Positions 1,688 to 14,605 of a DNA stretch of 64,000 nt are shown here, piece by piece. The notes beneath the pieces are model-generated. The model worked only from the letters and a program-made list of their open reading frames with translations. It was not told the DNA's origin and did not search any database. Position 1 is the first letter of the stretch; each line of letters starts with the position of its first letter. The position numbers and the translations under genes are program-made. Origin of the DNA: an uncultured bacterium (lineage in GTDB: Bacteria > Patescibacteriota > Doudnabacteria > UBA920); the NCBI GenBank assembly GCA_963749445.1, contig CAVVMJ010000010.1:43913-107912 (forward strand). Direction: 5' to 3'.

Positions 1688-1725
1688 TAAAATAAAAACA
1701 AGGGCAAGGCCTTGCGGCCTTGCCC
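1688..1725 (-). terminator. rho-independent terminator downstream of the giant surface protein gene
   Basis: GGGCAAGGCC-ttgc-GGCCTTGCCC stem-loop followed on the minus strand by a T-run (TTGTTTTTATTTT). Confidence 0.65.
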
Positions 1726-1746
1726 TTTACGGATTTACTAATGTAA

Positions 1747-4700
1747 TTATCTTCCAACCAATTTCAGAAGCGTTTTGCGCTTTTTTACCACCGCGAACGC
1801 GCCGACCATCAATCCGGCAAAAACAAAAGCGTTGGTATCCGCGCCGGTCTTGGGGGCCACAAGCGCTCCCAAAACCTGCGGCGTGTTGATGTTAATCGTT
1901 ATCGCGTTGCCGTAAGTGTTGGTCATAACGTAATGCAGATTGCTGGCCAAAAAGTACTTAATGCGCACGCGGAACGATTTGCTCACGCTGCCGCCGGCCG
2001 ACACAGTAATGGGCGGATAGTTGATGACATTGCCGGAAAGCGTGCCGCCGCCGTTGTCACTGATGTCCGCGTAAGGCAGAACCTGGGACAAATCATCCGT
2101 GACCACAAAGTTGGTGGCCGGCGAATTGCCGTTATTGGTTACCGTCAAAGTGTAAGTAATATAGTCTTCTTTGGAAGCCGGCTGTGTGGTAGCGTCAACA
2201 TTTTTGGTATCGTTCCAGGCTTTTTTGGCGTATATCAAATTAACATTGCCGCCGAGCACGTTGCCGTTGCCGTTAACGAAGACCCACGCGTCATCCTGCA
2301 CATTCGGCACGCTGTCGCCGCGGGCGCTGGCCGTGTTTTCAATGCTGGTGCCGCTGCCGGCCACAACCTGGGCCTGGAAAGTCGCGGTAACGCTCTGACC
2401 CGTGGAAAGCGAGCCCAAATTCAGGCTGTTGCCATACCAGTTGCTGCCGGAATTATAACCGTTGTTGTAATTATTATTGTTGTAATAACCGCCGCTGACC
2501 TGCGTGCTGCCGGAAATCCATTGCAGGCCGCTTACGCCCGCGTCGGTCAAAACCACATTATTGACGCTGGCGTTGCCCGTGTTGGTCACGGTAATTTGGA
2601 ACTGTACGGTATCATTCACGTTGGCGCTTACGGTTTTTTGGAACGAGCCGCCCGCCGTAATATTCCTGACCATTTTTTGGATGCCCAACTGCACGTACTG
2701 GTTATACGGTACCGGGTTATTATAGTAGTAAGGATTACTGTTGGACGACGCGTAGTAATAATAGGTGTTGGTCGTATTAGTTACGTTGTGGGAATCCGTA
2801 GTATTGGTTGTGGTATTGGTTACATTGTGGGAGTCTGTGGTATTCGTAATGTTATGCGAATCGGTGCTGTAATTTATATTATGCGAATCCGAGGTGTTGA
2901 TAATATTATTGCAGGAATTGTTTATGCAGGTATTGATGTTGTTTGTATTGCCGCCGTTGTTGTTATTTGAAGCCTGCAAAGTTATGGCGATAGTAGAAAG
3001 CAGCTGGTTGCAGCTTGCATCATACATCTTAAATACATAACTGCCGCCGGCCTGCAAATCGGAAACCGTTTGCTGGCCGTTGGCACCGCCGCTGGCAAAA
3101 GCCAGTTCCGCGGAAGAGCCGGGGTTGATGCGGGTTATGCGGATTTGGTTGGTGCCCGATGAAGCCCAGCTTATGGTTGAGCTGTAAGCGCTCCCGTTAA
3201 TCAGCAAAGCAGGCGCGGAATAGTTTAAGGTTGCGCCGGTATTGGAGGTACAAACCTGCGGCTGCTGCGAGACATGGACGCTGCAGTTAGCAGATTGGCT
3301 GCCGCTGGTCACGGTTACTGTTTTGGTGCCGATTGAAGTGTAAGTGACTCCGCTGAGCGTATTGCCCAAGGCCGTGCCGTAATTGGCGCCGGGATCGGAC
3401 CAGTTATAACTGCCGTTGCCGCCGGTAGCGGTAAAGTTTACGGCTTGATTGGTTTGGACGCTGGTCGGGTTGGCAAAGCAGGTTAAAGTTTGCGGCTGCT
3501 GGATGACGATGTTAACAACCGGACAACTCACGCCGTTGACTGTGGTTATGCCGCTGGTTACGCCGGCATTAAAGCGGGTAAGAAAAGTCGTGCCCTGGCC
3601 GGCAAACGGCACGGCGCTTTGCGCCGACCAAGTGTAGGTCTGGCTGGAAACAGGGTTGCTAATAGCGTAAGAGACCTGGTCAGACGGCGCATTGCTGCTG
3701 CCGTTTACTGTGGAAGGGGAAGTTAACTGGCAAATCGGCTGATTATTAACAGGAGCAGAACATTTAGCCGAAGCCTGGGCGCTGGCATTGGCCTGGGCCT
3801 GAGCCTGGGCTTGCTGCTGGGCCTGGCTTTGCGCCTTGTTTTGCGCGTCGGCTTGGCTGACGTTGCTGGTGGCTGTGGCGCTGGCCGAAGCCGAGGCCGA
3901 AGCCGAGGCAAACGAGCCGTCAGGGCAGGAAGCGCTGGCCGAAGCCGTGGCGCTGGCCGTGGCAGTTGCCGTAAACGTTCCGGGCTGAACCTGGATATTA
4001 ATAGTCACTATCGGACAGCTCACACCGTTAACGGTAACCGTTCCGGTAGATACACCGGCGTTAAAGCGGGTAAGAAAAGTCGTACCCTGGCCGGCAAACG
4101 GCACGGCGCTTTGCGCCGACCAAGTGTAGGTCTGGCTGGAAACAGGGTTGCTAATAGCGTAAGAGACCTGGTCAGACGGCGCATTGCTGCTGCCGTTTAC
4201 TGTGGAAGGGGAAGTCAACTGGCAAATCGGCTGATTAGCCGGAGCCTGGTTAACCAAAACCGAACAATTGGCGCGCTGGCCGTCAATGCTGCTGACGCTG
4301 GCGGTCTGCGTGCCAACGACACTGTAGTTAACGGTATAACTGGTATAATCCGCCGAAGCGTTCGCCGAAGAAGCGTTGCTGGTAGACCAGCCATAAGCGC
4401 GGCTGGTATCGCCGCCACTGGCGGTAAATACAACCGGTTGACCAAGAGTAATCGAGGCAACGTTGGCGCTGCAGGTTAAAGTCGGAAACTGAGTAGGAGT
4501 GCTACCGCAGCTCAAACTCGGCACAGGCACGTATTTATCAATTTGCGGATAACCATCCGCGGTTAAATAGAAATGTACGGTTTTACCGGGAGTCAACCAC
4601 GGGGCGTCTTGTCCTCCGAAGGGGCTGTTGGCAGCCGCTGCAAATAAACTAGGCTGGCCGGTGGAAGTATTAACTACATAGACTTTAACATTGTTTAAAT

Positions 4701-6642
4701 TGGAAGATGTCCAAGTCACGGTGCCGTCATACAAACATTGATTATAAAGCTGGTTGCCTACCTGGACGTTCAAAGTGGCACTACCGGCCGGAGGAGTGGG
4801 CGTACTGCCGCAGCTCAAAGCGGGCACAGGGACATACTTGTCGATTTGCGGATAATTATCGGCAGTCAAGTAAAAATGGACGCTGGTGCCCGGGGTCAAC
4901 CACGGCGCATCCTGGCTGCCACTTACAGCCGCGGCAAACAAACTCGGCTGGCCGGTTGAAGTATTAACCACGTAAACTTTAACATTGTTTAAATTAGAGG
5001 AAGACCAGGTGACAGTGCCATCATATAAACACTGGTTAGCAACCTGGCTGTTAACCTGAACATTTAACGTAGCGGTGCCGGCCGGAGGAGTGGGCGTACT
5101 GCCGCAGCTCAAAGCGGGCACATTGACGTATTTATCAATTTGCGGATAGTTGTCCGCGGTTAAGTAAAAGTGGACAGACGTGCCCGGAGTAAGCCACGGA
5201 GCATCGGAATTCCCCGAAACGGCGGCGCCGACTAAGCTGGGCTGGCCGGTGGAAGTGTTAACCACGTAGACTTTAACATTGTTTAAATTGGAAGATATCC
5301 AAGTCACGGTGCCGTCATATAAACACTGACCGGAAACCTGTCCGTTAAGATTAACATCCAAAGTAGCTGTGCCGGCCGGAGGGGTAGGCGTACTGCCGCA
5401 GCTCAAAGCAGGCACGCTGACATACTTGTCAATTTGCGGGTAACCATCCGCAGTTAAGTAGAAATGGGTGCTGGTGCCGGGAGTGAGCCACGGCGCATCC
5501 TGGCTGCCACTTACAGCCGCGGCAAACAAACTCGGCTGGCCGGTGGAAGTGTTAACCGCGTAAATTTTAACATTATTTAAATTAGAGGAAGACCATGTGA
5601 CAGTACCATCACCCAAACACTGGCCACTAACCTGGCCGTTGTAGCTTACATCCAAAGTGGCGGTGCCGGCCGGAGGAGTAGGCGTACTGCCGCAGCTCAA
5701 AGCAGGCACGCTGACATACTTGTCAATCTGCGGATAACCATCGGCGGTTAAATAAAAATGGGTGGATGTGCCGGGAGTGAGCCACGGGACATCTGCGTTG
5801 CCGCTTGTAGCGGCGCCAACCAAACCAGGCTGGCCGGTGGAAGTGTTAACCGCGTAAACTTTTACATTATCTAAACCTGAAGAAGTCCATGTTACAGTAC
5901 CATCGCCCAAACACTGGCCACTAACCTGGCCGTTATAGCTTACGTCCAAAGTGGCGGTGCCGGCCGGAGGGGTGGGCTGGGTTTGGCCGGTAACGGTAAC
6001 GGTAAAATAAATCAGTCTGATATAACCAAAACACGCCGGCTGGTCAGGCAAAGAAGCCGAAGAGTTTACAAAATTCAAGCTGCCCTGCCCAATGGGATCC
6101 ATATTCGGATCGCCGGTTCTCGCGCGCCATTGCTGGCCGCTGGCCGAAAGCGTTGTGCCGGAAAGCGTATTAATGTACATCTGGCCGTTTAAGGAATTGG
6201 AAGTGTTGTTAGCCGTAACCGAGGCGGAAATCATGTGACTGTCCGATGTGTTACTGTCAACCGTGGCGCTGACCTGTTCGCCGGTAGCCGCGGGGCCGCC
6301 CACGACCGCGCCGTTGTGCACATATAAAACAAATTCCACCTGGTCGCCGGGCTGGGCGCTAATCATATTATTTTCCGTATCGCCCTGCCAATCGCCGACA
6401 GCTTGCCCGTTGCGCACAATCTGGGCGCGCATAAACGGGGCGTCATTACAGCCGCCGCCGGTATGGGAAATTGAGTAAGGATTTAAAATCGGCGTGCTAA
6501 AAGTCGGGGTGCAGTCGGTTTCCGCGTGCAAAGAATTAATAACCCGCGGAGCCGCGGCCAAAACCGTCAAAGATACCGCAAAAAAACTCACCGCTAAAAC
6601 TGCGCCGACCTTGAAATTTAAAACCTGAGTATATTTTTTCAT
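1747..6642 (-). CDS. giant secreted tandem-repeat cell-surface protein (1631 aa) with sortase-type sorting signal
   Basis: N-terminal signal peptide with hydrophobic core. Five 98-aa (294-nt) tandem repeats. A duplicated roughly 90-aa module, Ser/Ala and Asn/Thr low-complexity tracts, and DUF11-like TVTNNGN segments. C-terminus APKTGAD, then a hydrophobic stretch, then KKRK. Confidence 0.75.
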   Translation of the reverse strand: MKKYTQVLNFKVGAVLAVSFFAVSLTVLAAAPRVINSLHAETDCTPTFSTPILNPYSISHTGGGCNDAPFMRAQIVRNGQAVGDWQGDTENNMISAQPGDQVEFVLYVHNGAVVGGPAATGEQVSATVDSNTSDSHMISASVTANNTSNSLNGQMYINTLSGTTLSASGQQWRARTGDPNMDPIGQGSLNFVNSSASLPDQPACFGYIRLIYFTVTVTGQTQPTPPAGTATLDVSYNGQVSGQCLGDGTVTWTSSGLDNVKVYAVNTSTGQPGLVGAATSGNADVPWLTPGTSTHFYLTADGYPQIDKYVSVPALSCGSTPTPPAGTATLDVSYNGQVSGQCLGDGTVTWSSSNLNNVKIYAVNTSTGQPSLFAAAVSGSQDAPWLTPGTSTHFYLTADGYPQIDKYVSVPALSCGSTPTPPAGTATLDVNLNGQVSGQCLYDGTVTWISSNLNNVKVYVVNTSTGQPSLVGAAVSGNSDAPWLTPGTSVHFYLTADNYPQIDKYVNVPALSCGSTPTPPAGTATLNVQVNSQVANQCLYDGTVTWSSSNLNNVKVYVVNTSTGQPSLFAAAVSGSQDAPWLTPGTSVHFYLTADNYPQIDKYVPVPALSCGSTPTPPAGSATLNVQVGNQLYNQCLYDGTVTWTSSNLNNVKVYVVNTSTGQPSLFAAAANSPFGGQDAPWLTPGKTVHFYLTADGYPQIDKYVPVPSLSCGSTPTQFPTLTCSANVASITLGQPVVFTASGGDTSRAYGWSTSNASSANASADYTSYTVNYSVVGTQTASVSSIDGQRANCSVLVNQAPANQPICQLTSPSTVNGSSNAPSDQVSYAISNPVSSQTYTWSAQSAVPFAGQGTTFLTRFNAGVSTGTVTVNGVSCPIVTINIQVQPGTFTATATASATASASASCPDGSFASASASASASATATSNVSQADAQNKAQSQAQQQAQAQAQANASAQASAKCSAPVNNQPICQLTSPSTVNGSSNAPSDQVSYAISNPVSSQTYTWSAQSAVPFAGQGTTFLTRFNAGVTSGITTVNGVSCPVVNIVIQQPQTLTCFANPTSVQTNQAVNFTATGGNGSYNWSDPGANYGTALGNTLSGVTYTSIGTKTVTVTSGSQSANCSVHVSQQPQVCTSNTGATLNYSAPALLINGSAYSSTISWASSGTNQIRITRINPGSSAELAFASGGANGQQTVSDLQAGGSYVFKMYDASCNQLLSTIAITLQASNNNNGGNTNNINTCINNSCNNIINTSDSHNINYSTDSHNITNTTDSHNVTNTTTNTTDSHNVTNTTNTYYYYASSNSNPYYYNNPVPYNQYVQLGIQKMVRNITAGGSFQKTVSANVNDTVQFQITVTNTGNASVNNVVLTDAGVSGLQWISGSTQVSGGYYNNNNYNNGYNSGSNWYGNSLNLGSLSTGQSVTATFQAQVVAGSGTSIENTASARGDSVPNVQDDAWVFVNGNGNVLGGNVNLIYAKKAWNDTKNVDATTQPASKEDYITYTLTVTNNGNSPATNFVVTDDLSQVLPYADISDNGGGTLSGNVINYPPITVSAGGSVSKSFRVRIKYFLASNLHYVMTNTYGNAITININTPQVLGALVAPKTGADTNAFVFAGLMVGAFAVVKKRKTLLKLVGR
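3470..4235 (-). repeat. duplicated roughly 270-nt module (two copies about 490 nt apart) flanking a Ser/Ala/Gln low-complexity tract
   Basis: aagt(t/c)aactggcaaatcggctgatt at about 3721 and 4212. The protein segment APANQPICQLTSPSTVNGSSNAPSDQVSYAISNPVSSQTYTWSAQSAVPFAGQGTTFLTRFNAGV occurs twice. Confidence 0.8.
4497..6003 (-). repeat. five tandem 294-nt (98-aa) repeats inside the surface protein gene
   Basis: Near-identical DNA blocks starting at about 4500, 4801, 5097, 5391 and 5688 (cgtactgccgcagctcaaagc...). The protein repeats begin TPTPPAGTATL and end PALSCGS. Confidence 0.85.
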
Positions 6643-6691: not shown

Positions 6692-6720
6692 ATACTACAA
6701 CTTTTCCAACCTTTTGTCAA
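6692..6720 (-). promoter_or_regulatory. sigma70-like promoter for the surface protein gene
   Basis: On the minus strand: TTGACA, 17-nt spacer, TAGTAT, located about 50 nt upstream of the ATG in an AT-rich 340-nt intergenic region. Confidence 0.4.
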
Positions 6721-6980: not shown

Positions 6981-8489
6981 TTATTTGCAGGCGCCCGGCG
7001 TTCCCGGGGCCAAAATGGGATTACAGGTTGTGACCGGTGCCCCCGGCGGCTTGGCTGGCTCCGTTTGCGTCGTTGTTGTTGTACCGCCGCCGTGATGCGT
7101 GGCAGCGATAATCGCGCCGGCCGCGGCAATCGCGACTACAATCGCAATCCACCACTTGCTACCAGCCGCCTTGAGCAGACCCTCACAGTGGATAACGCAC
7201 CCATCGTCGGTTGTTACATCAAGGGCAAACTGAACTTCCTTCTTCTTGTTCAGCTCGGCTGTTGTAACGAGCAGCGAGTTATCGCTGCCTGTGACGTTAC
7301 CGTTTACTCCCCACCTAATGGACTTTATCTGCCGACCCTTGAGTTGGGCCGGGGAAATGAAATCAGAGATGTTGAGCCGAATGCCGTCCTTCCCAACCCT
7401 AAAAGTCTGGTTGGGCTTGGAACAAGTCGGGCAAACCGGTTTCGAAGGTAGTGGAGGTGGTGAAGCTTCAACCCTCTTGACCACTACCGCAAACGGGCAG
7501 CTCGATCGCCGACCGAACTGGTCGGTAAGATCAAACGAGCCGGGATAAGTCCCGGGAGCGAAGTTGGTGATCTTAGGGCCGAAGGCGAATACATCTTCGC
7601 GCCCGTCGAGATCAGGGTTAGTGGACTGCACCTCCCCTTTCACCAGCCATTCAGCCTTCAGCCTGAGGTTTTCCGCCGCCCCAATAGCCCTCCCCCTAAA
7701 CTCAAGCACCTGTTCAGGAGTCAAGGAAAAAGGCGGCGTGTCAGTGGTAATGAGGTCGCCGTTCTGCCAAAGTCCGCAGGTTGCGAACCCGGGCCGTGTA
7801 ACTGGCGGCGTCCCTGGTTCGCTTGGCGTGGTCTCAAACCACACTTCCACGAACACATATCCGAAGTTGCCACAAATGAACACCAGATTGATAACGACAG
7901 CTTCGGATTCGATGAAGAATTCACAAGACTGCGTTCTGGCGGCCAGCTCCGGCGGAACCTCCAACTTCTCGTTCACCCCTGTACCATTCGCCATGATCAC
8001 GAACCTGCTCGGTTCGAGTAGCTTACTTGGCTTGCATGCTCCGGCTTCGATCTTTTTCTTGAACTCTTCCTTAGCCTCTGCCGACAAATTCAAACGTTTA
8101 TCTATGGCTTCAAAGAGCTCATCTTGCTGGTTCACGGTCGGCGGCATATTGACGATCGGGGTGGACGTAATGGGATCCCGGCGCCATTCGTGCTGCATGA
8201 CTGTCCAGTCCATGTCTGCGAGCCGCTTCATTTCGGGATCAACGTTCCCCTGCCTTTGCAGGTACGCGTCGATCTCCTCACGGGTACGCAGAACATGGAA
8301 GTAAGTTACCTTGCCATCCTCCACCTTCTTGTAGTCATAGCGCCGGCCGGAGGCTGTCACGCCACCGCCGTTCTGGAGCGTCGTAGGCAGTTGGGTTTGC
8401 GGTTGCTGGGCGAGCACGGACTGAGGTCCGGTCACCATCAACAACGCCAAAATCAAGGCCAGTATCTGGCCCACGTTCATACGATTCAT
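6981..8489 (-). CDS. secreted/membrane-anchored protein of unknown function
   Basis: Likely start MNRMNVGQILALILALLMVTGPQSVLA (signal peptide) with a GGAGG ribosome-binding site upstream. C-terminal TM segment WWIAIVVAIAAAGAIIAA followed by a Gly/Thr/Pro-rich tail. GC content is higher than in neighbouring genes. Confidence 0.45.
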   Translation of the reverse strand: MNRMNVGQILALILALLMVTGPQSVLAQQPQTQLPTTLQNGGGVTASGRRYDYKKVEDGKVTYFHVLRTREEIDAYLQRQGNVDPEMKRLADMDWTVMQHEWRRDPITSTPIVNMPPTVNQQDELFEAIDKRLNLSAEAKEEFKKKIEAGACKPSKLLEPSRFVIMANGTGVNEKLEVPPELAARTQSCEFFIESEAVVINLVFICGNFGYVFVEVWFETTPSEPGTPPVTRPGFATCGLWQNGDLITTDTPPFSLTPEQVLEFRGRAIGAAENLRLKAEWLVKGEVQSTNPDLDGREDVFAFGPKITNFAPGTYPGSFDLTDQFGRRSSCPFAVVVKRVEASPPPLPSKPVCPTCSKPNQTFRVGKDGIRLNISDFISPAQLKGRQIKSIRWGVNGNVTGSDNSLLVTTAELNKKKEVQFALDVTTDDGCVIHCEGLLKAAGSKWWIAIVVAIAAAGAIIAATHHGGGTTTTTQTEPAKPPGAPVTTCNPILAPGTPGACK

Positions 8490-8679
8490 TTCATTAGGCC
8501 TCCTTGGCCCTTTTGATTCTGTTTGGATTTTTTCTCGGCCTCGGGCCGAATTTGTACTTCCTACTTGGTTGGCCCGAGTTGGGTACCGAGTAGATAAGAA
8601 TCGCCAAAAAATAATTAAGGGAAAACCCAAAATAAGGGTTTTCCCTCCTCAAATTATTTGGTAAACCTAATCCACCCGA

Positions 8680-8740: not shown

Positions 8741-10255
8741 TTAATTTTCCACTTGCGTTAGCTGGCCAAACACCACCAAACGATATTTCGTGGAACCAAC
8801 CGGCCAGCAGGTGGACAAAGCCACCACGCTCTGGCTGCTGTTTTTAAACTGCGCCTGGTCGCTCGGGCTGTATTGCTGGCGGCCGACCACCACATAATGA
8901 AGCACGTGGGTCTTGCCGTCTGTGGTGGTTACGGTAATGCTGAACGAAGTGTCGTCGGCCAGTTTATCCAGCTGGGTAAAAACGTGATTATAATTGCCTT
9001 TGGCCCAGGAATAATTGCTGGAGTGGCCTGAAATGTAAGTAGTGCCGATTTCGCCGGGCAAAGCCGTGCCGGGATAATGGATGACGCCGCTCTGCAAATC
9101 AGTATTAAAATTTTTGGGGTCCGTGCTCCAAATTAAAGGCGCGTCAATTTTTAATGACGGGATGGAAAGTTTACCCGGAATATTTTGGTTGATATCCAAA
9201 TTTGAACCGCCTAGTTGCTGCCCGGCAGGCAAAGCCACTGGCGGATTCTGCACGGTTGAATTTTGAACGGTCGGATTCTGATTCTGCGCAGTTGAATTCT
9301 GCGCGGCCGGCTGCCCGGCGGCTTGCGAACTGCCGTTTACAGACGGCGCAACCTGTGCCGTTGGCGTACCAAAACCATAATTGCCGACTACGGCGCCGGT
9401 TTGCGCCCCGGCCACCTGGCCGCTTTTTTGCATTTGCGCCAAAGTCTGGCGGTTGGAAATGACTTCAAAATCAAAATACTTATCAATAATCGCCTGCTGG
9501 GCCGAGGTCAGCTTTAAACCGCTGGTCGGGTCAATGCCGGCCTGTAGTGCGTCGCTGTCAGACATGCCGAGACCCATGGTATCGTAAGACTTGGGGTTCA
9601 AATTCAAAAGATATTTCTGGAAGTTGGACAAGCCGTTTCCGGAATTATCCGCGTTGGGATCCAAAACTGATGCTTGGGAAACATCATAATAAAACTGGCC
9701 AATCCATTGCTGATAGCCGGACAGGTTCCCCTGCTGCAGCTGGGCCAAAGAATTCTGCTTTGGCGTTTCGGCCTGGGCTTGGGGTTTTGTCAAAAAACCA
9801 AAATTTAAACTCGCGCCGCTGAAAAAATAAAGATAAACAAACAGGGCCACGGTAAACACCGCCACGTAAGGCGTAACGTTTTTAACGAGGTTCAAAATTT
9901 TATTGCCGCCGGAAGGCGGAGACTGATGCAAATCGCTAATATGTACCGGATCCGGTCCGTGATTAACCGCTTCATCATGCGCGGAGCCAACGCCGGGCAA
10001 ATCGCCAAAAACGGAGTGCTTGTCAGCGTTGTCCAACACCTCGCCCAAATCCACACCCGCGCCTTGGGCAAACAAACTCTTGCCCTCCGGCGCCTTGCCG
10101 AAACCGTCTTTATAACCGGGATCAACGCCGGCGCTGGACGGAGGCGTTTGAGGCGTTAGAGAGAGCGGAATGGGCATACCGAACAACTTGGCAACTTCCG
10201 GAGTTGCCGCCGGGTATTTTTTGGCCAAATTGTCTGTAGGATTATTGTCGCTCAT
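8741..10255 (-). CDS. sortase-family transpeptidase with long N-terminal membrane anchor and low-complexity linker
   Basis: C-terminal sortase domain with His in ISGHSS, active-site Cys in VALSTCWP (TLXTC-type) and Arg in RLVVFG. TM segment near residue 135. Confidence 0.7.
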   Translation of the reverse strand: MSDNNPTDNLAKKYPAATPEVAKLFGMPIPLSLTPQTPPSSAGVDPGYKDGFGKAPEGKSLFAQGAGVDLGEVLDNADKHSVFGDLPGVGSAHDEAVNHGPDPVHISDLHQSPPSGGNKILNLVKNVTPYVAVFTVALFVYLYFFSGASLNFGFLTKPQAQAETPKQNSLAQLQQGNLSGYQQWIGQFYYDVSQASVLDPNADNSGNGLSNFQKYLLNLNPKSYDTMGLGMSDSDALQAGIDPTSGLKLTSAQQAIIDKYFDFEVISNRQTLAQMQKSGQVAGAQTGAVVGNYGFGTPTAQVAPSVNGSSQAAGQPAAQNSTAQNQNPTVQNSTVQNPPVALPAGQQLGGSNLDINQNIPGKLSIPSLKIDAPLIWSTDPKNFNTDLQSGVIHYPGTALPGEIGTTYISGHSSNYSWAKGNYNHVFTQLDKLADDTSFSITVTTTDGKTHVLHYVVVGRQQYSPSDQAQFKNSSQSVVALSTCWPVGSTKYRLVVFGQLTQVEN

Positions 10256-10378: not shown

Positions 10379-11518
10379 ATGCTATCAAAATCCCCATCTG
10401 AACAAACTTTAACAGCCAGGCGCAAGCCACTGCCGACCCACGGCTTTTTACTGATTTTACTGATAATCTTTGTTGCCTTCAAGCTTGTATTGGCACTGGC
10501 GCTACCGCAAAGCGCGGTTTTTGCCTCTGACCTTACCATAGACAACATCCTTTCGGCTGTAAATAGCCAACGGAGCCAGCGCAACCTTGTTACGCTCAAC
10601 ACGGACAGCCGCTTAAGCAGCGCCGCGCAAAGCAAAGCCGACGATATGCAGGCGCGACACTATTTCGCGCACGTTGATCCGGACGGCAATTATATTTGGC
10701 CAAAAATCGTGGCCGCCGGTTACACGCCTTATTTGGAACTCGGGGAAAACTTGGCCATTGAATTTTACGATACAGATAGTTTGATATCCGCCTGGATGAA
10801 CAGCCCAACGCACCGCGCCAACATTTTAAACGACGGTTTCCAGGACCAGGGCATGGGTCTGGACTTTGGCGACGCTAATAGCGGCCAATACCATTCGGTG
10901 GTGGCCAATACCTTTGGAACGCTGCTGTTGGCAAAAAAAGTAGAGGCCGCACCTCAGACGACCAAGTTTACCCCGACTACAGCGTCGGGGCCGGCCGTGT
11001 CCGGCGCCAGCGAAAAAACCCCGACGCAAACGGCTCCAAAAAATACTGCCCAACCCAAACCCAAGGCCCCGCCTACCGCCCCGCCCGCTGCCGCCCAACC
11101 GGAGCCAGAGGCAACTTCGGCTCCAGCCACAACCACGGCACAAAATAATCCCGCCCCTGCTCCGGAACCTGTTGCTAATCCGGTTAATCCCCGCGGCGAT
11201 TATGCCATGGGCCTGAGCCCAAGCCAACCCGAAGCCAGTACGGCCCAAGCGCAAACTTCCCAACCGGTTTCGTCATCTTCACCCCCCGCCCTGACCACGG
11301 CGCCGGCCATAGTGAACACCGAATCCCAAAACCCGCTGGCAAACTTCCAAACCAACCGCTATTTTACGTTGGCCTTTGGCATCGTCTTATTTTTATTTTT
11401 ACTCACCGACCTGCGCGGCATAATGAAACAAAAATCCGAACTCGTCGGCAAAAAAATCAACAACCTGACGCTCCTGTTTTTGGCTTTGGTCGTGATTGCG
11501 ATGATGTACTGGCTGTAA
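10379..11518 (+). CDS. CAP/SCP/PR1-like domain protein (YkwD-like) with Pro/Ala/Thr-rich linker and C-terminal membrane anchor
   Basis: HYFAHVDPDG ... WMNSPTHRANIL motifs typical of the CAP superfamily. N-terminal TM/signal segment and C-terminal TM. Confidence 0.7.
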   Translation: MLSKSPSEQTLTARRKPLPTHGFLLILLIIFVAFKLVLALALPQSAVFASDLTIDNILSAVNSQRSQRNLVTLNTDSRLSSAAQSKADDMQARHYFAHVDPDGNYIWPKIVAAGYTPYLELGENLAIEFYDTDSLISAWMNSPTHRANILNDGFQDQGMGLDFGDANSGQYHSVVANTFGTLLLAKKVEAAPQTTKFTPTTASGPAVSGASEKTPTQTAPKNTAQPKPKAPPTAPPAAAQPEPEATSAPATTTAQNNPAPAPEPVANPVNPRGDYAMGLSPSQPEASTAQAQTSQPVSSSSPPALTTAPAIVNTESQNPLANFQTNRYFTLAFGIVLFLFLLTDLRGIMKQKSELVGKKINNLTLLFLALVVIAMMYWL

Positions 11519-11576
11519 TGACCAATAAAAAAATTGAAAGATTGAAAATTGAAAGATTATGGGACTTTACGAATCC

Positions 11577-12564
11577 TTAAATCTTTAAATCATTCAATCT
11601 CTCAATTGGACTTATCATCGCATAATTGCACCCGTCCAGAATCCGCGCGCGGAAGTTGGTTACGGAAATCACCATGGCCGCAACCAAAACACTAATCAAT
11701 AAAATCTCAATAAAACTTTGGCGGGTCAAAGCGCCGTCCAGCCGATAATGGAACACGCCCCAGAACAGGTTGTAAGCCGCGGTCATAAAAATAGCGCCTG
11801 TAAAATAATTGTAGCCCCAGCGCACGTACACCAATTGGCCGATTATGGCCATTAATACGGCAATAATCAGCGCCGAAGCGATAGTGTAAAAATTCACCCG
11901 GCGGTGCTGGTAAAGCGCCTGGTAAATCAACAGAAAAGTAAAACACAACACTTCAACGCTGAAATACCAGGCCGGCAGGCAATTATAGCGGAGCCAGGAC
12001 AAAGCGGCCGCGTAAAGTACGCCGACCGCGTAAATTTTGACCACGGTTAAAACCACAAAAATGTCGCGGTCCACGATTTCCCTGCGCCGGTAAAAAATTT
12101 CCTTTAAGTACCAATAATAAAGTAATTAGCGCCGCGGATGACAAAAGCAGGACGGTCTGCTGGATTTTGACAAAACCGAAATTGACGTAAAACAGGGACA
12201 CCGTGGCCCAAAAAATAAATCCGGGCAAAAGCAAAAAATGCAGCCATTGCCGAACGTATGACCAGCGGCGCAGGTGCTCAAAGCGATCCCAAAAAGCGGA
12301 AAAAATTATTTGCCCGTTGCGGTGCAACCTGGAAATTGTGTTTTGGTGCTTGCGTTTGGCCCGCTGCCAGCTGCCGCGCTTTTTAAAATGCAAATCAAAG
12401 AAAAAAACAATATTAAAAATCAAGTATACAAATATCCAAAAAGCCACATTCAAATAAGTGGCCGGCTGGTTAAGATTTAAAATGTAAACCAGCGCTTCAA
12501 AACCACCCAGCACGGCCAGGGCGATGACAAAAAGGGCAACGGTTTTTTGGGTTTTTTGGGTCAT
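11577..12564 (-). CDS. polytopic membrane protein, apparently one gene split by a frameshift near 12075-12125
   Basis: ORFs 11983..12564 and 11577..12074 are both multi-TM. The frame of the downstream ORF stays open upstream as LLYYWYLKEIFYRRREIV, while the upstream ORF tail becomes nonsense. Confidence 0.4.
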
Positions 12565-12640
12565 GATAGCGATCCTAATCTACGAATAACATCCGAATTA
12601 TCCGATTCGCAAAAGTCCCCGGGATTCGGAACATTCGGAT

Positions 12641-13372
12641 TTAATTCGTAACATTCGGATCGGATAATGCTTTGCGCCGCATCAGCTCTCCCGCTCGGAA
12701 AAGTGATTCAAAAGTGCCGGCGTCTATCCATTCCCCTGTTACCAAATCTACTTTCAGCTCGTCTTTTTTTAAATACCAATTGTGGATTTCGGTAATTTCC
12801 AACTCGCCGCGCTCCGAAGGCTTAGCCTGTTTGGCCGCCTCGGCTACGCGGTTGTCAAACAAGTAAAGCCCCGTAATGGCGAAATCCGACAAATATTTTT
12901 TTGGTTTTTCCTCAATTTTTACGGCATTCATTTTGCCGTCAAATTTGACCACGCCAAAACGCTGCGGGTCCGGAACTTTTTTGGCGAATATGTGGCCGCC
13001 GCTTTTAAACTTGCGGATGGTGGCCGAAAAATCGTCTTCAAAAATATTGTCCCCCAAAATCATACAAACGTTGTCGCTGCCAATGAAGTCTTTACCGATA
13101 ATAAACGCGTGCGCCAGGCCTTCGGGCTTGTCCTGGATTTCGTAAGCGATGCGGCAGCCAAATTCCCGGCCCGATCCTAGCAACTTCATATAATCGCCGG
13201 CGTGGTCCGGCGCGATTATGACCAAAATATCCTTAATACCGGCCTGCAGCAGCGTTTGCAGCGGATACAAAATCATCGGCTTGTCGTAAACCGGCAGTAG
13301 CTGTTTGGAAGTGACTTTGGTCAGCGGGTGCAGGCGCGTGCCTGTCCCGCCAGAAAGAATAATGCCTTTCAT
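12641..13372 (-). CDS. rfbA: glucose-1-phosphate thymidylyltransferase
   Basis: MKGIILSGGTGTRLHPLT...LPVYDKPMI N-terminus, diagnostic for RmlA. Start chosen at ATG 13372. Confidence 0.85.
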   Translation of the reverse strand: MKGIILSGGTGTRLHPLTKVTSKQLLPVYDKPMILYPLQTLLQAGIKDILVIIAPDHAGDYMKLLGSGREFGCRIAYEIQDKPEGLAHAFIIGKDFIGSDNVCMILGDNIFEDDFSATIRKFKSGGHIFAKKVPDPQRFGVVKFDGKMNAVKIEEKPKKYLSDFAITGLYLFDNRVAEAAKQAKPSERGELEITEIHNWYLKKDELKVDLVTGEWIDAGTFESLFRAGELMRRKALSDPNVTN

Positions 13373-13407
13373 ATCAACTTTATTTAATAATATGCGTTGC
13401 CGCAAAC

Positions 13408-13767
13408 CTATCTGCCCATTTCCCAAATGCTGATTAATATCCCGACAAAACATAATAACAAGAATAGCCAAATGAATGGCTTAAGGATCTTGCGCGCGGT
13501 AGTTTCTTTAACTTTTGAAACCGTGTGCTGCCGTAAGCCATCCTTCAAAATCTCCCGGGTCTGGTCAATAAATTGTTTTTTGACATATACACCCCAAGTC
13601 TCAAAGGGCAATACCGCATTGCCCCGGACTACGGACAAAGCTTCGGTTGCGTCATCTTGCTTTATAAGGGCATCGATGTTGGCCTGCTTAAGCAAAGCTT
13701 GCGCTATCTGAGCTTCGGGTCGACCAGTTGCCATAACTAAACAATATTGGGAAAAATCAATTGCCAT
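13408..13767 (-). CDS. small protein with C-terminal TM anchor (hypothetical)
   Basis: 119-aa ORF filling the rfbA-rfbD gap; C-terminal hydrophobic segment. Confidence 0.35.
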   Translation of the reverse strand: MAIDFSQYCLVMATGRPEAQIAQALLKQANIDALIKQDDATEALSVVRGNAVLPFETWGVYVKKQFIDQTREILKDGLRQHTVSKVKETTARKILKPFIWLFLLLCFVGILISIWEMGR

Positions 13768-14605
13768 ATTTGTCTGTTAAAAATTCTTTTAACGCCGCCT
13801 GCCATGGACGAAGTGGCGGCAGTTTGGTATTTAACAAAACCGCTTTTTTCGGCCGTTTGGCCTGACGTAAAAAGTCCGCAGACTTCACCGGAATCAAATT
13901 GATTTTTTTGCCCGCGATGTTAAAAATTTCTTTGGCAAAATCATACCAAGAAGCCTGCCCGCTGTTGATAATATGGTAAATGCCGTAAGGCAGCTTTTTG
14001 GTAATCAAACTTTCCACCGCTTTGGCCAAGTCAGCAACATAAGTCAAACTGTTGATTTCGTCATTTACCGCCTTAATTGTAGCAGTTTTTTCCGAAAGAC
14101 CCAACATCACATCTATAAAACTCTTTTCGCGATACTTGCTTTCCGCCTCCTGGCCGAACAAAACCGAAGTCCTGATAAGATAATACCTCAGACAGTTAGC
14201 CTGCAATAATTTCTCCCCTTCGTATTTGGACTTCGCATATACTGATATCGGATTGGGCTTGTCGGACTCTCGGTATTCGCCTTTGACTCCGTCAAACACA
14301 TAATTCGTGGAAAAATGCACCAACGGGATGCTGAATTTTTTGCAAGTCTTGGCAATATTGCCCACAGCTGCGGCGTTTATTGAAAAAGCCTGGTCCTTTT
14401 CTTTTTCCGCTCCGTCAACGTTATTATAGGCCGCGCAATTAATCAAGGCCGCGGGTTTTTGCCCGAGCGCCGCGATTTTATTTTCCAAATCTTCAGCGTT
14501 GACAATATCAATTTCCTGCCTGTCCCAACCCAAAGCGCGCGAAAAAGTTCTTTTCAATTCTCCTCCCAACATTCCCTGCGACCCTAAAATCAATATCGTG
14601 CCCAT
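13757..14605 (-). CDS. rfbD: dTDP-4-dehydrorhamnose reductase
   Basis: MGTILILGSQGMLGGEL Rossmann start; RmlD-like length and motifs. Confidence 0.75.
   Translation of the reverse strand: MGTILILGSQGMLGGELKRTFSRALGWDRQEIDIVNAEDLENKIAALGQKPAALINCAAYNNVDGAEKEKDQAFSINAAAVGNIAKTCKKFSIPLVHFSTNYVFDGVKGEYRESDKPNPISVYAKSKYEGEKLLQANCLRYYLIRTSVLFGQEAESKYREKSFIDVMLGLSEKTATIKAVNDEINSLTYVADLAKAVESLITKKLPYGIYHIINSGQASWYDFAKEIFNIAGKKINLIPVKSADFLRQAKRPKKAVLLNTKLPPLRPWQAALKEFLTDKYGN

Follow-up and report, generated by a model that had tools for sequence, protein, structure and literature searches.

The locus described here raises the question of whether a giant surface gene built from repeated modules is a present-day hotspot for recombination and length variation, as was originally predicted from its DNA, or whether its repeats are mainly the record of events that took place on evolutionary time. 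The gene lies in a 64-kb stretch of DNA (hereafter the window) from a bacterium assigned to Patescibacteriota; Doudnabacteria; UBA920. The lifestyle of CPR/Patescibacteria is believed to be an attached one, on other microbes, and, to our knowledge, almost nothing is known of the means by which most of them attach. All the reported repeat classes fall within a single minus-strand open reading frame; apart from it and the genes upstream of it described below, the window is occupied by housekeeping genes. The features of the gene and of its surroundings, in coding order, are the following:

8741 to 10255, minus strand: sortase gene, 504 aa, with the catalytic domain at aa 363-499 (Pfam Sortase PF04203, 69.4 bits against a cut-off of 26.6)
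6692 to 6720, minus strand: promoter-like site, TTGACA, 17 nt, TAGTAT (consensus scan, 10/12 matches; a pattern match only)
1747 to 6642, minus strand: whole gene, sortase-anchored modular surface protein of 1631 aa (open reading frame list and translation)
6553 to 6642, minus strand: putative signal peptide, about aa 1-30 (a hydrophobic stretch after a basic N-terminus, by translation)
5980 to 6552, minus strand: all-beta N-terminal domain, aa 31-221, conserved in the family, candidate binding head
4501 to 5979, minus strand: five tandem 98-aa units, U1-U5, predicted to be FN3-like (repeat finders, profile, fold model)
5686 to 5979, minus strand: U1, aa 222-319
5392 to 5685, minus strand: U2, aa 320-417
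5098 to 5391, minus strand: U3, aa 418-515
4804 to 5097, minus strand: U4, aa 516-613
4501 to 4803, minus strand: U5, aa 614-714
4243 to 4500, minus strand: module A, about aa 715-800, Cys-bounded, about 80 aa, predicted Ig/PKD-like (translation; approximate boundaries)
3982 to 4242, minus strand: module B, first copy of a duplicated 270-nt module
3760 to 3981, minus strand: Ser/Ala/Gln-rich Cys-bounded module, aa 888-961 (codon inspection, homologues)
3499 to 3759, minus strand: module B', second copy (repeat finder and direct comparison)
3259 to 3498, minus strand: module A', about aa 1049-1128, related to A and diverged from it (translation; approximate boundaries)
2974 to 3258, minus strand: distant sixth unit-like domain, about aa 1129-1223 (HMM i-E 1.7e-5)
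2707 to 2973, minus strand: Asn/Thr/Tyr-rich tract, aa 1224-1312, with CxNNSCN; the equivalents in homologues differ in length
1873 to 2706, minus strand: conserved C-terminal region with two DUF11 / TIGR01451 repeats (Pfam and NCBIfam matches)
1750 to 1857, minus strand: sorting signal, APKTG, hydrophobic segment and KKRK (TIGR01167 match)
1700 to 1727, minus strand: terminator-like hairpin, a 12-pair stem followed by a T-run, directly 3' of the stop codon

Rfam and tRNA scans of the gene region returned no RNA genes. The plus-strand open reading frames at 1933-2970 and 3811-4479, within the gene, were taken as spurious, as homology is entirely on the minus strand.

The overall layout is that of a large surface protein of repeated modules, as had been anticipated, with a signal peptide, an APKTG sorting signal and an upstream sortase. 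The translation starts with MKKYTQVLNFKVGAVLAVSFFAVSLTVLAAAP, which reads as an N-terminal secretion signal, and homologues share this layout. At the opposite end, APKTG is followed by 18 hydrophobic residues and KKRK, an LPXTG-type arrangement that scores 17.8 bits with TIGR01167, above the cut-off of 15.9, and 16.5 bits with Pfam Gram_pos_anchor PF00746, below the cut-off of 20. The first position of the motif is A instead of L throughout the family, and the A, P, T, G and A of the signal are invariant in 8/8 proteins. The DUF11 repeats that precede it are above curated cut-offs (58.7 bits against 24.6 for Pfam DUF11 and 57.7 against 24 for NCBIfam TIGR01451), and homologues match the last 172 residues with 62-72% identity. 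The giant gene product is the sole sorting-signal protein of the window, and a nearby sortase, as expected for an LPXTG-type wall protein, is found both by the PF04203 match and by synteny. From these sequence features we infer that the upstream sortase would attach the giant protein covalently to the wall.

A scan of one genome per species yielded 53 related loci, 52 of them from Patescibacteria-type MAGs, many labelled Candidatus Doudnabacteria, with a best C-terminal identity of 79%; the genome of the window is itself absent from the 53, and the related loci point to a Doudnabacteria-like CPR bacterium. The giant gene has a sortase homologue upstream in 31 of them, and a divergently transcribed CAP-domain gene is also conserved, together with flanking rhamnose-biosynthesis genes that include rmlA- and rmlD-like ones. 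The pair of sortase gene and giant gene recurs in about 30 Patescibacteria genomes, mostly Doudnabacteria. Between the two genes, on the same strand, the window holds an open reading frame of 549 aa without a family match, a homologue of which is absent from 53/53 related loci.

A word-indexed search across 5.8 billion clusters of proteins gave 8 matches only, one of them (P0001) identical to the query. The C-terminal segment of about 300 aa is common to 7/7 relatives and the N-terminal one of about 200 aa to all but P0004, and the middles of the seven consist of differently shuffled modules. The protein collection contained no relative above 90% identity, the 90% identity cluster having a single member, and a scan of JGI metagenomes with six exact 8-residue peptides from the N-terminal domain found no close relative. 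The gene is of an ordinary kind, that of fibrillar or Periscope-like adhesins, found in an unusual ultrasmall lineage. Since the N-terminal domain gave no match to any known adhesive domain, the term adhesin rests on analogy, and it is by comparison with such proteins that a role in adhesion is suggested.

The five units are the most regular part of the stalk. Tandem Repeats Finder recovered a 294-nt period at 4632-5977 and a separate repeat finder returned five in-register copies, the last of which is 303 nt long with a 3-codon insertion. Each unit matches a profile built from the same five units with E ~1e-60, a circular comparison that shows mutual consistency only; independent support comes from the DNA repeat finders and from matches to units of other proteins. 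Five 294-nt units had been described at 4497-6003 with about 90% DNA identity; the array stands at nearly the same place, but the identity figure is too high, pairwise comparisons giving 71-87% (mean 77%). At the protein level the units are 72-88% identical (mean 83%), with neighbours at 87-88%. They differ at 122/294 columns, mostly synonymous, with the reading frame intact; dS between units ranges from 0.38 to 2.27 and dN/dS from 0.04 to 0.26, so that synonymous sites are near saturation, and the longest in-register exact runs between units span 17-57 nt.

An AlphaFold2 model of a single unit is a seven-strand sandwich (pLDDT 90.9), whose best PDB matches are FN3 domains (E ~2e-3, TM 0.5-0.66). 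PDB sequence searches, whether made with the unit profile or the entire protein, returned sub-threshold matches only, those of the unit profile being likewise FN3, and a Pfam scan of 27 aligned units, with E up to 1, gave scattered weak matches only and no match to the PF00041 profile. The unit profile matches 919 representative proteins among 1.84 billion at E <=1e-3, with matched stretches reaching 28 per protein among the best 150 of the 919. An RHS-repeat protein is among the matches, as is a eukaryotic one with 36 fn3 domains. Because of the fold model, the sub-threshold sequence matches and the profile match to a multi-fn3 protein, we assign the unit, as modelled, to a diverged FN3-like domain family without annotation, in line with the Ig-like fold that had been expected; apart from the match to the multi-fn3 protein, the resemblance to FN3 is one of fold. 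In the 27-unit alignment (A1), W31 and P69 are invariant, and C23, W66, F75, L77 and C96 are nearly so. The sixth unit-like domain, detected with the A1 profile, has a position conserved across the family and is 43% identical to unit 820 of locus L001. Short Pro/Thr linkers (TPTPP) are present and suggest that the stalk is rod-like.

The rest of the stalk is made of other modules, and modules similar to A are found in P0002 and P0007. The 270-nt module, described as a duplication about 490 nt apart, is seen at 3499-3745 and 3991-4237, with a spacing of 492 nt and 89% identity over 247 nt. The duplicated module is a composite of a near-identical core of 177 nt (3569-3745 = 4061-4237; 2 differences, 99%), which contains a 131-nt exact direct repeat (3593-3723 = 4085-4215), and of a diverged part, the next 79 nt of the module in coding direction (3982-4060 against 3490-3568), with 30 differences. 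The Ser/Ala/Gln-rich module that separates the copies is conserved in homologues, with 3 copies in P0003 and 2 in P0005. It had been described as microsatellite-like; its protein is of low complexity, but codon inspection led us to reject a microsatellite in the DNA, the longest perfect tandem being 27 nt with a period of 12. Interleaving of repeats is limited to this B, Ser/Ala/Gln, B' segment; the gene had been thought to be built of nested repeats, and the other classes stand in series. The Asn/Thr/Tyr-rich tract was located as described, with four (T/S)DSHN(I/V) minirepeats at 2794-2889, each written with different codons.

The reading that we favour, and regard as reasonably likely, is that of a fibrillar surface protein anchored by sortase, probably an adhesin, with a stalk in which modules are born and decay and a five-unit array that has by now aged. 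The stalk, of some ten beta-sandwich modules (the five FN3-like units, the distant unit and, at about 80 aa each, four Cys-bounded modules), would keep the conserved N-terminal beta-domain at a distance from the wall. C-terminal to it are the two DUF11 repeats and the APKTG motif that the upstream-encoded sortase is presumed to use for wall attachment. Units would duplicate in tandem within a lineage and gene conversion would patch them now and then, and their DNA would subsequently drift at synonymous sites with retention of the protein sequence. The array of this gene would represent the aged state, in which unequal recombination has become rare.

Traces of past exchange and of changes in length are found both inside the gene and among its relatives. 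As units from elsewhere reach at most 43-48% identity to those of the protein, which are 72-88% identical among themselves, the five-unit array arose in its own lineage. Unit number is 0-5 in the orthologues of the 53 loci and 8 in the database homologue P0004; one sub-family of the unit is present in 2 copies in L004 and in 4 copies in L007. The proteins of L016 and L017, 85-91% identical, differ in length by 275 aa, with an alignment offset of about 287 aa that appears to correspond to three tandem modules of about 92 aa. Recent duplicates, with 93-98% nucleotide identity and exact runs of 173-306 nt, are held by L005, L007 and L021, and aged arrays, in which amino acid identity exceeds nucleotide identity, by L001, L011 and L025. 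Within the gene itself, the longest in-register run is the following:

5488 to 5544, minus strand: U2/U4 gene-conversion tract, a 57-nt exact match with its partner at 4900-4956

Between U2 and U4, 26 variable sites in a row are concordant (global permutation p = 0.0006), and between U3 and U5, 10 (p = 0.002). In the case of B and B', differences amount to 3/177 in one part and 35/84 in the other (Fisher p = 6e-17), counted in windows slightly unlike the 177- and 79-nt ones given above. Gene conversion has linked U2 with U4 and B with B'. Recombination and length change, to judge from these comparisons, have occurred on evolutionary time.

The present state of the array is a different matter. 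The rate of homologous recombination drops sharply as sequences diverge, and the process requires a stretch of exact identity. Since the units are 13-29% diverged and their exact runs are short, recombination in the array is expected to be rare, and the divergence of the sequences, taken together with this general dependence on identity, points to a low current rate. The five-unit array is probably not a present-day hotspot. The sole strong recombination substrate in the gene is the 131-nt exact repeat, with copies 492 nt apart, and recombination between them would delete 492 nt (164 aa) in frame, that is, one B module and the Ser/Ala/Gln module. Of the hotspot that was originally predicted, past recombination is borne out by conversion tracts and length change by copy numbers that differ between species, but the array DNA as it now stands is a poor substrate next to that of classic variable-length proteins. 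As for phase variation, which had also been proposed, nothing points to it: the gene has neither microsatellites nor long homopolymers of the kind expected of simple-sequence contingency loci, and the only homopolymer of at least 7 nt, T7 at about 6580-6586, falls within the part that encodes the signal peptide.

A more dynamic picture of the same array would be that of a Periscope-type fast length switch, in which the number of the five units changes often within populations by unequal homologous recombination, tuning how far the head projects or aiding escape from recognition. Periscope candidates have been screened for as tandem repeats of >50 aa with >=80% protein identity (PMC8201768), and the five units, of 98-101 aa, fall within this rule. 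The layout also agrees: as in SasG, Aap, Rib/alpha C and Sgo_0707 (PMC8201768), an N-terminal head is followed by a tandem beta-domain stalk and a C-terminal sortase anchor, the identity between adjacent domains is far over the usual limit of <50% for multidomain proteins, and relatives differ in repeat number, here between species. Moreover, the conversion tracts mean that units do interact. The identity of adjacent units, unusually high for multidomain proteins, speaks against our favoured reading in that it could reflect ongoing homogenisation. However, the most extreme length variation of Periscope Proteins is tied to the highest repeat DNA identity (PMC8201768), and in the present gene such identity is found only in the B/B' core; the units themselves, at 71-87%, with their short exact runs and nearly saturated synonymous sites, do not have it. 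Nor are the units G5/E, Rib or SHIRT domains, being FN3-like and unannotated, and the gene differs from those of Periscope Proteins in its CPR host and in its APKTG sorting motif. A fast switch of this kind is therefore unlikely in our view.

We have also considered a broader proposal, in which the sortase and the giant protein would constitute the main host-attachment organ of Doudnabacteria-like episymbionts, cycles of duplication would tune the stalk, and selected synonymous "scrambling" would protect a useful array from recombinational collapse, with its protein domains staying nearly identical. The scrambling component draws on the excess of amino acid over nucleotide identity, which recurs independently in at least four other lineages. 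We regard the proposal as a whole as quite doubtful.

Returning to single wall attachment, as in our favoured reading, the adjacent sortase might instead polymerise the protein into a fibre, making it a pilus subunit. The best NCBIfam class match of the sortase is indeed to class C, with 51 bits against a cut-off of 160, but every class score is below its cut-off. The window holds one sorting-signal protein and the conserved locus one substrate gene, no YPKN-type pilin motif was seen on reading the translation, and 1631 aa is far above known pilin size. Taken together, these observations render a pilin improbable.

That the array was wrongly expanded or collapsed by the assembler from fewer or more identical units can be set aside almost entirely: repeats are a general risk in short-read metagenome assemblies and the 131-nt exact repeat might confuse assemblers with k-mer <131, but an assembler cannot invent a pattern of in-frame, mostly synonymous differences such as the one found here, exact overlaps between units (<=57 nt) are below the typical read length, and similar arrays are present in independent genomes. 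Expansion of one single unit is excluded by copies that differ mainly at synonymous sites, and collapse, to which genes of this type had been said to be prone, is unlikely for units this diverged. Assembly ambiguity could affect only the B, Ser/Ala/Gln, B' segment, and only at k-mers <131.

As a case of repeat-driven variation, the gene adds little to a general phenomenon that is well known, and its array looks stabilised, not hypervariable. It is of more interest as a conserved, unannotated pair of sortase and substrate in CPR bacteria. The locus defines this pair, with a single APKTG substrate, as a concrete candidate for attachment studies; the head and the main stalk domain of the substrate, both without family annotation, provide two new domain families, and modules have visibly been gained and lost in the stalk from one species to another.

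The protein can be compared with three further known systems. Like the fibrillar adhesins of large-scale screens (PMC9210967), it combines repeats in the stalk with an anchor in the cell wall and a distal domain free of repeats, although this distal domain has given no match to a known adhesive family and the stalk modules, DUF11 aside, have no Pfam model. A hypervariable surface gene of a Gracilibacterium, with PTD repeats, has been described in which nucleotides vary and amino acids are conserved (PMC6851277). Both cases concern a CPR surface repeat whose protein is kept while its DNA varies, but the PTD repeat is a 9-nt (3 aa) element in a coil region that varies within a population, whereas here 294-nt units, modelled as folded domains, are compared between species. 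Finally, two DUF11 repeats adjoin the anchor, as in DUF11 / TIGR01451 surface proteins, but they cover only about 15% of the protein and the five-unit repeats are different domains; one homologue carries in its source the name "uncharacterized repeat protein (TIGR01451 family)".

The giant protein, a modular surface protein of 1631 aa and the presumed sortase substrate, has APKTG(A) instead of LPXTG as its sorting motif, and APKTG(A) is invariant in all eight of the family proteins aligned in A2. Its partner sortase (504 aa) carries about 340 aa of low-complexity sequence as a long N-terminal extension and, when compared with all NCBIfam sortase classes, scores below the cut-off for every one of them. 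Taken together, the invariant motif, the long extension and the sub-cut-off scores suggest that the two form an unclassified CPR sortase/motif pair. The features of the locus discussed here are, in window coordinates:

1750-1857, minus strand: sorting signal of the giant gene, APKTG(A) (alignment A2)
3760-3981, minus strand: Ser/Ala/Gln tract, a conserved Cys-bounded module
6981-8630, minus strand: 549-aa ORF, lying between the sortase gene and the giant gene that encodes the presumed substrate
within 10379-14605: CAP/YkwD-domain gene, divergent, flanking the sortase
12641-13471: RmlA-like dTDP-rhamnose pathway gene, flanking the sortase
13757-14605: RmlD-like dTDP-rhamnose pathway gene, flanking the sortase

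The genes flanking the sortase hint at a cell-envelope neighbourhood. Of 53 related loci, 26 yielded a homologue of the CAP-domain gene, 22 one of the RmlA-like gene and 14 one of the RmlD-like gene. The probable start of the 549-aa ORF is the Met near 8489. Its product has an N-terminus resembling a signal peptide and a membrane segment at the C-terminal end, and searches of Pfam and NCBIfam returned no match to it. Because none of the 53 related loci carries a homologue, this ORF looks like a lineage-specific insertion in a conserved locus.

The 98-aa FN3-like unit, present as five tandem copies in the giant protein, is a predicted stalk domain that is both widespread and unannotated: the profile built from 27 units (A1) matched 919 representative proteins, among them an RHS-repeat protein (P0011) with 13 matched stretches, and Pfam holds no model for it. 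Duplications of this unit in two orthologues from other species are much fresher than those in the window. In L021, the units spanning aa 320-427 and aa 582-689 share 98% nucleotide identity with an exact run of 306 nt, and those of L005 (aa 209-411) share 93% with an exact run of 263 nt; these two loci are better candidates than the window for continuing recombination or assembly problems. Between the orthologues L016 and L017, which share 85-91% identity, the length difference is 275 aa and the alignment offset about 287 aa; it appears to correspond to three Cys-bounded modules in tandem, each of about 92 aa, found in L016 and missing from L017. This is a clear case of recent stalk-length change inside the giant-protein family.

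The Ser/Ala/Gln module follows the pattern C-PDG...ASASASATSN(I/V)SQxDAQNKAQ...AKC. The window's giant protein has one copy, and the homologous proteins P0003 and P0005 have three and two copies respectively. As for base composition, G+C is 53% over the giant gene (taken as 2001-6000) versus about 44% over the initial 2 kb of the window; it is 43-50% in the next 20 kb, and values of 50-54% are also found elsewhere in the window. The higher G+C of the giant gene probably stems from its Ala/Gly/Pro/Thr-rich composition, not from a foreign origin.
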